From: Candidatus Saccharimonadota bacterium
GTDB taxonomy: Bacteria > Patescibacteriota > Gracilibacteria > BD1-5 > UBA2023
Assembly: GCA_042852035.1 (NCBI GenBank)
Contig: BAAFHK010000003.1
Location: 30,001 to 62,000 of the forward strand
Direction of reading: 5' to 3'
DNA length: 32,000 bases
Part shown: positions 18,461 through 28,361 of the stretch, piece after piece
Layout of the letters: every line of letters starts with the position of its first letter
How positions within the stretch are numbered: the first letter of the stretch is position 1
Position numbers and translations under genes: made by a program
Notes under the pieces: generated by a model
Told to the model about the DNA's origin: nothing
The model's database searches: none
What the model saw: only the letters and a program-made list of their open reading frames with translations

Positions 18461-19207
18461 ATGCGTCTTGATATTCGCCTCTCTGAGACAAAAGACATAA
18501 CGAGAAATAAGGCTCAAAGTTTCATCAAAGATGGACTCGTAACCGTTGATGGAAAAATTATTATAAAACCTTCTTTCGAAGTGAATGGAAACGAGATTAT
18601 CGAACTCAAAGAGGAGAAAAAGGTTCACTGGGTATCACGAAGCGCGGGAAAACTCGATGGATTTCTTGAACAACTACAAATCCAGAATATTGAACTTCAA
18701 GTAGCTGGAGCGAGGTGTCTCGATGTGGGATCATCTACTGGAGGATTTACTCAAGTACTGATACAAAGGTGAGCGAATCATGTTGATGCGGTCGATGTTG
18801 GAACGGATCAACTTCATTCAACCATAAAAACACATCCAAGAGTACAAAGTCATGAACAGATAGATATTCGGAATTTTAAGAGTGAGAGCATCTATGATAT
18901 CATCGTCTGCGATGCTTCATTTATTTCTCTGGAAGATATCCTTGCAAGTATCTTGAAATTCGCCAACGAGGATACAAACAGTATCTTGCTGTGGAAGCCA
19001 CAATTTGAAGTCGGAAGAAAAAATCTGCGAAAAACCTGAGTCCCAAAAGACGAGGAAACCGTTAAGAAAAAACAACTCGAATGGGAATTTTTTCTCTGTG
19101 AAAATAATTGCAAAATTTTGCAAAAAGAAAAATCAACCGTACTTTGAGAAGCCTGAAATGTAGAATGGCTCTACCTTATAAAGAAAATGGAAAAAATGGA
19201 AAAATAA
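18461..19207 (+). CDS. tlyA: TlyA-family rRNA 2'-O-methyltransferase with S4 domain, 248 aa
   Basis: Translation: MRLDIRLSETKDITRNKAQSFIKDGLVTVDGK (S4 domain), [47 protein letters not shown], and IVCDASFISL. The stop is TAA 19205-19207. Confidence 0.85.
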
Positions 19208-19209
19208 GG

Positions 19210-19237
19210 TTGACAATTTTTTATTGAGAAATATATT
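19210..19237 (+). promoter_or_regulatory. Strong sigma70-type promoter driving the GC-rich unit
   Basis: TTGACA (19210-19215), a 16-nt spacer, then TATATT (19232-19237). Confidence 0.55.
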
Positions 19238-19265
19238 CCTCACCCCTGAAACAAAGACACATAAC

Positions 19266-19463
19266 ATGGAACACATCATTCCGATTCTTTTTGGCGTTGT
19301 TGGCCTCGCGGCTCTGGCAATCCCATTGATCAAGGCTCGACGCTCGCAGAGTACCCAAGGGCACACCTGCGAACTGCAGAGTGAATTCGCGTACGGTGTC
19401 GGAGCTGCCGCAGGAAATGCTGGCTGGCATCCATCACCCGCAGAACCAAGTGAATCAGCCTAA
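19266..19463 (+). other. GC-rich transcription unit: either a 65-aa membrane peptide ORF or an unidentified structured ncRNA
   Basis: The ORF ATG 19266..TAA 19461-19463 encodes MEHIIPILFGVVGLAALAIPLIKARRSQ.... The surrounding 19281-19490 is about 60% GC by my hand count (128/210), in an otherwise AT-rich window. It contains nested hairpins and sits between a consensus-like promoter and an intrinsic terminator. Confidence 0.4.
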
Positions 19464-19483
19464 AAGGCGACACACTTGGCTAG

Positions 19484-19505
19484 GAGGCGCCCTCGGGCGC
19501 CTTTT
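19484..19505 (+). terminator. GC-rich rho-independent terminator
   Basis: GAGGCGCC, loop CTCG, GGCGCCTT, followed by TTTT (stem 19486-19491/19496-19501). Confidence 0.65.
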
Positions 19506-19575
19506 CAATTTATAATTATAGCCTTGCCTTTCTTCTTCCTTTGATTATCCTCCTTGTATTATAATATTCATAATT

Positions 19576-20346
19576 ATGTGACGTTGACCCGTTGTAGCTG
19601 CTGCTAAAGAAAAAAATGCAAAAGCGAAAGCAAAAATTAATACTCTCCATGCGAAACTCATTGCTATCGCTGCTGAAAAATGATCAGATATAAGCCTCAA
19701 TACTTCACTTGCTGATGCTATTCATAGCGCAAAAAAGGATGGGGTCACTGCCGATGTTATCGATAGAGCCATCAAACGATGAGCCTGACTTGATAAAGAT
19801 TCTCAAAAAGTTGAAGAGATTATCTATGAATGATACGCTCCTGGTTGAGTTGCCATCATTGTAAGAGCGCTCTCTGATAATCGAAATCGTACAGCACCAA
19901 ATATGCGACACATATTTTCTGCATATGGAGGAAGCCTTGGTGAAACTGGTACCGTCTCAAATTTTGCCTTTGACTACCGAGGAGTTATAAGTCTCACAGA
20001 GTACTCAAACAGTGATGAACTTGAGATGGCTATCATGGAGACGAGCGCCGAAGATTATACTCTAGAATGATCTGAAGCACGAATCACAACCGATCGCACA
20101 AAGCTCAGTGAAGTGAGAAAATCACTCGAAGAATCTGGGTATAAAATCGAAAAATCAAGCTTTGAATATCTCCCAAAAAATTATATTGAAGTAACAGATT
20201 TTGATATCGCACTGAAGATTTACAAAATGCTCGAGGAATTTCATGAAGATGAAGATGTTGAAGTAGTGTGGAATAATGCTGATATTTCAGACGCGCTTTG
20301 GAAAGAAGTCGAGATGAAGGTAGAATCGAGTAAATTTAGAACTTAA
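19576..20346 (+). CDS. yebC: YebC/PmpR-family transcriptional/translational regulator, 256 aa
   Basis: Translation: ...LADAIHSAKKDGVTADVIDRAIKRGAGLDKD...[53 protein letters not shown]..., typical of YebC. It joins the track ORF 20113..20346 in the same frame. The stop is TAA 20344-20346. Confidence 0.9.
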
Positions 20347-20348
20347 TC

Positions 20349-20915
20349 ATGACTCAGTATTTTCTTCATGGTTGATGTGTGGGGGCCTTATCACAAGATA
20401 ATAGAGATTTCTTCTCAACCCTTGTAATGGCTCCAAGAAAAGAATCTATTCGAATTCTCATAATTCCCTTTGCAAGAGAAAGATCTCGATGGGATAAAAA
20501 ATTCGAAGAAATTAAAGAAAGATTTTTTGAAGTTGCAGAATGAAAAGAAATTAAGATTATTCTAAGTGAGTCAGACATCCAAAAATGCCAAGAGGAAATA
20601 CGCAAAGCTGATATTATATTTATCTGGTGAGGAGAAACCGAAGTCTTGCAAGCTCAACTCGAAAAAATTGAAGATTTCAAAGAAATAATCTCATGAAAGG
20701 TTGTTGCGGGGTCATCTGCAGGAGCGCTTATCTTCTCAAAATACTACTATGAAAATGACACTCACAGCTATCATAATGGCTTTTGATTTCTTGACTGTGG
20801 AATAATATGTCATTGGAGAAATCAGGAAAAAGAACTTGCTCATATAAAAAAATATTGATGAGTAAATAAAGTTCTCTGTATAGCAGAATGAAAATATCTC
20901 ATTCTGGAATGTTAA
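20349..20915 (+). CDS. Peptidase S51 (dipeptidase E / cyanophycinase-like) family protein, 188 aa
   Basis: It starts 3 nt after the yebC stop. The frame was checked line by line to TAA 20913-20915. Motifs: ADIIFIW-G-GETEVL and the nucleophile motif VVAGSSAGALIFS. Confidence 0.72.
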
Positions 20916-20970: not shown

Positions 20971-21435
20971 ATGGCAGATGATGTAACGAGTGGTCAAAAT
21001 CCACCAGTCCCTCCCGTGGATCAAGCTGGACCACCTATTCCTCCTCCCCCTCCTCCTCGACCGAAAACTTCAAACGATGAGATTTTTGAAAGGTTTCTCG
21101 TGCATCCTCTCACAAGTTTCGATGAGAAATCATTTATGGACCTTCTTGAGCACTCTCTTTCTCTCTCCACATTTGAGAAAAAAAGAGTGATTGACGCTAT
21201 CCCAACACTTTCTCAATTTCAGATAGATGAACTCATCAAAGTATTTGAAGACGAACGTGTTGAGTTTCGCAAACTTATGCCTACTGAAGGTGAGATAATT
21301 AAATGACTTGTAATAAAGGCACAAAATGAATGGGAACAACTTAAAGACATTTATAAAGAAGAGGTAAAAGCCCAATCTGCTGCTGATGTGGATGCAAAAA
21401 AAGCGGAAGACCTAAAAAAGAGTCTTGGTCTATAA
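20971..21435 (+). CDS. Hypothetical protein with Pro-rich N-terminus, 154 aa
   Basis: The track ORF 20971..21306 continues through TGA 21304 to TAA 21433-21435. The N-terminus is NPPVPPVDQAGPPIPPPPPPRPK, followed by a helical charged domain. Confidence 0.6.
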
Positions 21436-28276: not shown

Positions 28277-28361
28277 TGGTGCTCGGGATGAGATTTGAAC
28301 TCACACACCCTAGGGGCATACGCGTCTGAGACGTACGTGTCTACCATTCCACCACCCGAGC
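28277..28361 (-). tRNA. tRNA-Leu (anticodon CAG), type II with long variable arm, CCA encoded
   Basis: The reverse complement reads GCTCGGG-TG-GTGGAATGGTAGACAC-G-TACGT-CTCAGAC-GCGTA-TGCCCCTAGGGTGTG-GTGAG-TTCAAAT-CTCAT-CCCGAGC-A-CCA. It has a 7-bp acceptor stem, a 5-bp anticodon stem with loop CU-CAG-AC, a T-loop TTCAAAT, and a total length of 85 nt. Confidence 0.93.

Follow-up and report, generated by a model that had tools for sequence, protein, structure and literature searches.

The GC-rich island that lies between tlyA and yebC in the 32-kb stretch of DNA analysed here (32,000 nucleotides, hereafter the window) is most probably a stand-alone, lineage-specific gene for a small membrane protein, provided with its own promoter and its own terminator, and not a structured RNA. 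A promoter, an open reading frame (ORF) and a terminator follow each other in the island and are conserved in a related contig, the encoded protein is under purifying selection, and the codons used are anomalous for the genome. The features on which the argument is built are listed below, with positions counted from the first nucleotide of the window.

18461-19207: tlyA, the upstream neighbour, encoding a TlyA-type rRNA methyltransferase (S4+FtsJ)
19210-19237, plus strand: sigma-70-type promoter of the small gene, TTGACA (19210-19215), 16-nt spacer, TATATT (19232-19237)
19266-19463, plus strand: predicted small protein gene, 65 codons and TAA, MEHIIPILFGVVGLAALAIPLIKARRSQSTQGHTCELQSEFAYGVGAAAGNAGWHPSPAEPSESA (evidence: one homologue, pN/pS, codon periodicity)
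19275-19331, plus strand: predicted transmembrane (TM) helix IIPILFGVVGLAALAIPLI, codons 4-22, followed by the basic flank KARR (hydropathy, AlphaFold2)
19395-19430, plus strand: Gly/Ala-rich tail motif GVGAAAG(N/S)AGWH, codons 44-55, conserved in both homologues
19486-19505, plus strand: intrinsic terminator, GGCGCC (19486-19491), CTCG loop, GGCGCC (19496-19501), TTTT (19502-19505)
19524-19551, plus strand: yebC promoter TTGCCT-16-TATCCT, outside the unit, read by eye in the sequences and alignments of all relatives
19576-20346, same strand as the unit: yebC, the downstream neighbour, encoding a TACO1/YebC protein

Gracilibacteria live as episymbionts, are uncultured and have recoded a stop codon, and to our knowledge their small proteins are almost never annotated. 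In the window, the use of translation table 11 breaks every gene, while long ORFs appear once TGA is taken as a sense codon. Under genetic code 25 (TGA = Gly), TGA makes up 267 of the 728 glycine codons of 27 ORFs, and the YebC and TlyA proteins align with their relatives only with this assignment, as in the segment AIKRGAGLDKD. All the related loci considered here are annotated as Gracilibacteria or Patescibacteria MAGs, and because of the recoding the public gene calls on their contigs are wrong; in locus L022, for example, a 127-aa ORF of the opposite strand was called in place of yebC. No Shine-Dalgarno sequence was found before any gene in the window, so that its absence ahead of the small ORF is uninformative.

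The compositional anomaly from which the island was first recognized is real. In a sliding profile of the whole 32 kb, 210-nt windows have a mean GC content of 36.8% (sd 4.0%), and the maximum of 61% is reached at 19292-19501, the runner-up anywhere in the 32 kb attaining 49%, which makes the island the strongest outlier by far. The preliminary description had given a hand count of 128/210 for positions 19281-19490; the recount yields 122/210 (58%), so that the excess stands with a slightly lower figure. The island is contained in the 368-nt gap that separates tlyA from yebC. A repeat search over the 32-kb window revealed neither direct nor inverted repeats at the flanks, nor a second copy. 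An assembly chimera was considered and rejected, the junctions of the island being syntenic with those of L022.

The promoter read in the preliminary description, TTGACA-16-TATATT, is present as given. It begins 3 nt past the tlyA stop codon, matches the consensus at 11 of 12 positions and was the joint best in the 2.2 kb submitted to a consensus scan. Relatives retain both hexamers and their distance of 16 nt (TTGACT-16-TATATT in L022, TTGACT-16-TAAATT in L025 and TTGACA-16-TACATT in L029), while the sequence of the spacer differs. At the other end of the unit, the GGCGCC/GGCGCC hairpin with its T-run is found in the sequence as described, it forms in both the minimum free energy (MFE) and the centroid folds of the unit, and an equivalent stem occurs in the relatives. 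The stems read GGCGCC/GGCGCC in the window, GCCGCC/GGCGGC in L022 (GCCGCC-TTCG-GGCGGC, then a T-run), GCCCCC/GGGGGC in L025 and GTCCGC/GCGGAC in L029, all 24 of the 24 cells being Watson-Crick pairs and 3 of the 6 pairs covarying. A simple terminator scan listed the orthologous L022 hairpin and left the window hairpin unlisted. Transcription from the near-consensus promoter would thus be expected to give an RNA of about 260 nt, in which the first ATG, some 21 nt downstream of the predicted start, would open the 65-codon frame; the GC-rich hairpin and T-run would end this RNA ahead of the separate yebC promoter, which would make the gene monocistronic.

Between the terminator and the yebC promoter, at about 19510-19521, the window carries an insertion of ~11 nt (ATAATTATAGC) that is specific to it, being absent in L022, L025 and L029, and that, on the minus strand, gives rise to a TATAAT lacking a corresponding -35 box. 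Besides the TTGCCT-16-TATCCT promoter, a perfect TATAAT is found at 19560-19565, 10 nt ahead of the yebC ATG, so that the leader of the yebC mRNA may be very short or missing altogether.

The 65-codon ORF, without TGA, is where the preliminary description had placed it. Taken by itself it is no evidence of a gene, because a 66-codon open frame has a probability of ~0.23 of arising by chance when only TAA and TAG act as stops at ~58% GC, and because in the window the island can be read without a stop in all six frames. The case for a protein comes from comparison. A word-indexed protein search with the ORF gave no match, and an exhaustive phmmer search of 1.84 billion representatives returned a single one, P0001 (E 4e-10, 62% identity over residues 1-56). 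P0001 is a "hypothetical protein" that forms a singleton cluster in the cluster look-up and is encoded on JGI contig Ga0654430_0334910, a 931-bp metagenome contig (locus L022). The order of elements in L022 is the same as in the window, namely the 3' end of tlyA, the promoter, the same ATG with an ORF of 71 codons, the hairpin and yebC; the N-terminus of its YebC is 84% identical to that of the window, which makes it the closest relative found. The two small proteins share 57-62% identity, the start codon, the TM helix, the GVGAAAGxAGWH motif and the position between tlyA and yebC. They differ in that P0001 has 71 aa from the shared ATG, two 2-codon insertions and another C-terminus. The database call of P0001 is 86 aa long, with a start that falls inside its own promoter.

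No further family members were retrieved by a second indexed search with P0001 and its cluster look-up. The island was absent, by blastn, nhmmer and tblastn, from 21 loci anchored on YebC (12 from GTDB genomes and 9 from JGI metagenomes, with YebC identities of 46-79%), and the inspection of 59 TlyA fragments and 11 more contig look-ups brought variants of the tlyA-yebC region and no third member of the family. Since there is one homologue only, all comparative coding statistics given below are those of a single pair, the window versus L022.

In an alignment made with MAFFT from DNA only, the differences between the two ORFs fall 16/14/35 on the first, second and third codon positions when the 55 positions of each kind that precede the end of the GWH motif are compared (chi-square p 0.002), and 23/21/41 over the whole ORF; the two gaps within the ORF are of 6 nt each. 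Nei-Gojobori estimates put pS at 0.75-0.79, that is, at saturation and similar to that of the adjacent YebC (0.79), with pN at 0.25-0.32 as compared to 0.12 in YebC. The resulting pN/pS of 0.40 in the ORF frame is the lowest of the six, the other five giving 1.19, 1.19, 0.92, 1.16 and 0.54, and 22 of the 37 identical residues are encoded by different codons. In this one pairwise comparison, frame, start codon, indels, third-position excess and pN/pS all follow the pattern of a protein-coding gene, and the three-nucleotide periodicity that the preliminary description had named as the mark of a simple small protein is the one observed. Antisense coding in the frame with a pN/pS of 0.54 (frame -2) was considered and rejected, as this frame has no promoter and no conserved start. 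A reduced pN/pS in one antisense frame is a usual mirror effect, and the value is that expected of a mirror of the sense frame.

The same comparison bears on whether the unit is instead the gene of a structured non-coding RNA, such as a lineage-specific sRNA or a divergent 6S- or SRP-like RNA, whose helices would account for the GC content while the ORF would be incidental. Some observations point this way: the tRNA-Leu of this genome has 56% GC, the openness of all six frames makes the ORF weak evidence, and the whole unit, terminator included, folds better than shuffled sequences (z -2.4 for the plus and -2.5 for the minus strand). However, the z-score drops to -1.08 once the terminator hairpin is removed, 27 of 200 shuffles then folding as well. 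The fate in L022 of the 84 pairs of the window MFE structure was as follows.

Unchanged: 33 pairs
Changed on one side, pairing kept: 10 pairs
Changed on both sides, pairing kept: 7 pairs
Broken: 34 pairs

Among the 51 changed pairs, 34 are thus broken (67%) and 33% still paired, which is about the random expectation, and covariation in the window, L022, L025 and L029 is confined to the 6-bp terminator stem. The three helices drawn in the preliminary description do consist of complementary words; the coordinates of the first were off by one, the helices are not nested, two of them are mutually exclusive because CGCAGG (19409-19414) overlaps GCCGCA (19407-19412), and none of the three is kept in L022.

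Searches with Rfam 15 led to the same result, the sole match in the 32-kb window being the tRNA-Leu at 28280-28361. For positions 19100-19650 no model reached its gathering score, and a threshold of E<=10 brought only chance-level hits to models of miRNA, snoRNA and similar RNAs (best E 1.6-6.6, with bit scores far below gathering); nothing was found at E<=0.1 in L022, L025, L026 or L029. ARAGORN detected no tmRNA; the preliminary description had matched the locus to no conserved core of SRP RNA, tmRNA or RNase P RNA and to no tRNA. With codon periodicity, indels in multiples of three and a pN/pS of 0.40 seen only in the ORF frame, a structured RNA gene is very improbable, and the leading reading of the island in the preliminary description is not supported. 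The L022 transcript does fold better than its shuffles (z -3.3), and both sequences are predicted to form a hairpin over the codons for AAAG(N/S)AGW; some mRNA structure in L022 is compatible with that score.

The protein deduced from the small gene has the marks of a single-pass membrane protein; the preliminary description had read a TM peptide with a basic juxtamembrane stretch. Residues 4-22 form a predicted TM helix with a Kyte-Doolittle mean of 2.65 over 19 residues (2.57 at the same place in L022), preceded by an N-terminus, MEH, without positive charge and followed by a basic flank, KARRSQ in the window and GKIWRSQNRQSRK in L022. Both proteins therefore combine a hydrophobic stretch of at least about 19 residues with charge asymmetry. 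Because of the KARR flank, the positive-inside rule places the ~40-residue tail in the cytoplasm, for a predicted N-out, C-in topology. This tail retains C35-E-L and G44-VGAAAG(N/S)AGWH-55 in the window and L022, and 11 of the 12 residues of the latter motif are identical despite synonymous differences. AlphaFold2, run on the two-sequence alignment, produced one helix at residues 5-37 and a disordered tail, at low confidence (pLDDT 57); the tail is probably unstructured on its own. Sequence searches in Pfam, NCBIfam, PHROGs, PADLOC and PDB assigned no family to the small protein, and the two Pfam matches obtained for the L022 protein were both sub-threshold. The window and L022 proteins would accordingly be the two members of a new family, one of small membrane proteins of a familiar class.

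Small single-pass membrane proteins of under about 70 aa that are encoded by stand-alone genes are exemplified by modulators of the AcrZ, MgtS and KdpF type. The window protein resembles them in its size, its narrow distribution and a single TM helix that is N-terminal and lies next to basic residues, and its gene likewise has a promoter and a terminator to itself. It differs from them in having no sequence similarity to any, in that no neighbouring gene suggests a partner, in its conserved Gly/Ala-rich cytoplasmic tail, for which no counterpart is known to have been described, and in the genetic code (code 25) of its host. The product would be inserted as a single-pass protein with the MEH end (uncharged or acidic), the TM segment at residues 4-22, the KARR flank and the cytoplasmic tail, and, by analogy with these modulators, the conserved CEL...GVGAAAG(N/S)AGWH tail may bind or modulate a larger partner at the membrane.

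The main functional rival to this proposal is a type I toxin gene, that is, a small hydrophobic peptide that damages membranes and is silenced by an antisense or overlapping RNA. The size of the protein, its single TM helix, the strong promoter, the gene's own terminator, the intergenic location and the narrow, patchy distribution are all reminiscent of such genes. Like TxpA, BsrG and Fst-like toxins, the window gene would specify a short hydrophobic peptide from a strong promoter, with a structured, GC-rich 3' end; there is, in addition, a weak resemblance to the SR6 antitoxin model, non-significant and driven by the terminator (E 4.3). In contrast to TxpA, BsrG and Fst-like toxins, the gene is single-copy in the 32 kb, its product has a long, polar and conserved tail that most type I toxins do not have, and an antisense promoter or RNA is not detectable. 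A consensus scan, which may miss a weak or atypical promoter, showed nothing resembling a promoter on the minus strand, within the unit or next to it, for either the window or L022, and the only minus-strand TATAAT is the one in the window-specific insertion of ~11 nt, with no -35 box. PADLOC and the Pfam toxin families were also unmatched, and a toxin function is considered improbable.

Codon usage explains why a gene for a small protein stands out as a GC island. The ORF has 56.4% GC, as compared to 47.7% (sd 2.0) expected from back-translation with host codons (z 4.4), and a GC3 of 0.49 versus an expected 0.28 (z 4.1), a value reached in 0.02% of the simulations. Its synonymous-codon log-likelihood is -1.41, and all 27 other ORFs lie between -0.93 and -1.17. 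The atypical codons noticed in the preliminary description (GGC, CTG, GCG and CGC) are in keeping with this deviation: GGC is used for 3 of the 7 glycines, while it represents 4.5% of the host Gly codons, and TGA for 0 of 7, against 37% in the host, where 5.5% of the blocks of 7 Gly codons are devoid of TGA. About half of the GC excess over 37% is due to an amino-acid composition rich in Ala, Gly, Pro and Arg, and the remainder to GC-ending synonymous codons and the lack of TGA-Gly. The L022 copy also has no TGA among its 6 Gly codons, while the L022 flanks have 8 of 14. Unlike the window copy, it is not GC-anomalous, its 48% GC being ordinary for a contig of 45% and its GC3 being 0.38; the island is thus not intrinsic to the gene family.

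Since synonymous sites are saturated and YebC is fully adapted (GC3 0.25-0.29), the window copy must either have arrived recently or be kept GC-rich by selection at synonymous sites. In composition and codon usage it departs from its host in the way expected of horizontally acquired DNA, and the first possibility is favoured: the copy may be a fairly recent arrival in this AT-rich lineage, taken over from a GC-richer relative when the flanks, which are conserved, recombined. Phage, plasmid and viral collections and, L022 apart, protein libraries revealed no donor, and there are no flanking repeats as a signature of mobility; DNA and tblastn searches against phages and plasmids gave nothing or short chance-level matches only, and two viral-contig scans gave no match. 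Of the "foreign mini-gene" of the preliminary description, the small protein gene is therefore retained, and its foreign origin is suggested by codon usage, with no donor found.

The foreign-looking codons could also be those of a decaying remnant of foreign DNA, a spacer devoid of function in which the ORF occurs by chance. The tlyA-yebC gap is indeed variable, being empty in L023, L027 and L007, occupied by other genes in L002, L024, L033 and L034, and filled with unrelated inserts in L025 and L029. However, purifying selection acts on the protein while synonymous sites are saturated, and L022 maintains the start codon, the frame, the promoter and the terminator, which leaves very little probability for a mere remnant, less than for a structured RNA.

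The variability of the gap also informs on the limits of the unit. In L023 and L027 the gap is of ~70 nt only (65 nt in L007) and the small gene is absent, and the TTGCCT-16-TATCCT promoter of yebC is nevertheless present. As this promoter is kept even in the ~70-nt gap, it sets the boundary of the unit on the right, and the unit is to be seen as an insertion between the tlyA stop codon and the yebC promoter and not as a leader. A cis-regulatory yebC leader (a riboswitch or attenuator using the hairpin as expression platform) would be in line with the location of the unit, which immediately precedes yebC in the same orientation, with the terminator about 70 nt before the yebC start. This is hardly credible when the terminator is followed by a separate and conserved promoter for yebC, when L023, L027 and L007 have that promoter without the unit, when the unit is missing from most relatives and its body is not conserved in L025 or L029, and when Rfam offers no match.

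Units located at the same position, with the same promoter and terminator and with unrelated bodies, are found in L025 and L026, whose YebC is 77% identical to that of the window, and in L029 (64%).

L025, positions 1131-1498
L026, positions 1009-1196
L029, positions 575-972

In their promoter (TTGAC[AT]-16-TA[TAC]ATTC..CCC) and in their terminator these units are homologous to the window. The bodies show no detectable kinship to that of the window or to each other (z at most 2.4 for DNA and protein), nor are they GC-rich. The bodies of L025 and L029 were tried as diverged orthologues, and their DNA and protein alignments stayed at shuffle level, an outcome that fast-evolving small proteins could also give. 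The position may accordingly hold an old small gene that has evolved fast beyond recognition, or one whose body has been replaced, and the data are compatible with both.

Several minor features of these loci can be added. The L029 body contains a 66-codon ORF (MLSNFFKKLAHLLSFKRKR...), and the sole long ORF of L025 reads across the terminator, meeting no stop codon there. Immediately before the terminator, L025 and L029 have in common a block of ~45 nt, AAGAACTGAA...TATCAGTC[GA]AAAC..AAGACAG, which could be a conserved 3'-end element. At L025 1118-1160 the tlyA stop codon is changed from TAA to TCA, and the tlyA frame therefore crosses the -35 box of the unit that follows and ends at a TAA in the -10 region. 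In L002, 2.6 kb of other genes occupy the tlyA-yebC position. Just downstream of tlyA, on the opposite strand, L033 (2977-3330) and L034 (849-1202) have the gene of a 117-aa membrane protein of the Phage_holin_4_2 family (PF04020), a further small membrane-protein gene in this variable spot.

A broader interpretation would be that the tlyA-yebC gap is a conserved expression slot in this Gracilibacteria clade, in which promoter and terminator are kept while unrelated small ORFs are exchanged (the bodies of the window and L022, of L025/L026 and of L029), the ORF of the window being a recent import readable under both the standard code and code 25. This is regarded as unlikely; were it true, the occupant of the slot would record gene flow between organisms with different genetic codes, the source being a host, a phage or a standard-code neighbour.

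With the small membrane-protein gene as the preferred reading, a plausible false lead appears settled. A GC island flanked by a promoter and a terminator in an AT-rich genome has the look of a structured RNA, and here the island stems from the amino-acid composition of a small protein and from its unusual choice of codons. The avoidance of TGA-Gly in both copies and the variable slot framed by promoter and terminator would, if established, bear on how genes move and evolve in recoded genomes.

Two further genes lie downstream of yebC in the window. A conserved 154-aa protein (20971-21435) that belongs to no Pfam family is found downstream of yebC in nearly all relatives (L001-L008, L011, L023 and L025), and its N-terminus is a polyproline run, PPIPPPPPPRP. 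According to two recent reports, YebC-family proteins relieve ribosome stalling at polyproline (PMC12234827, PMC11990639), and the conserved pairing of YebC with a polyproline protein is suggestive. In the window a Peptidase_S51 gene (20349-20915, E 2.9e-13) sits between yebC and the gene of the polyproline protein; in most relatives the latter two are directly adjacent, and in L029 a partial match to the S51 gene occurs just after yebC.
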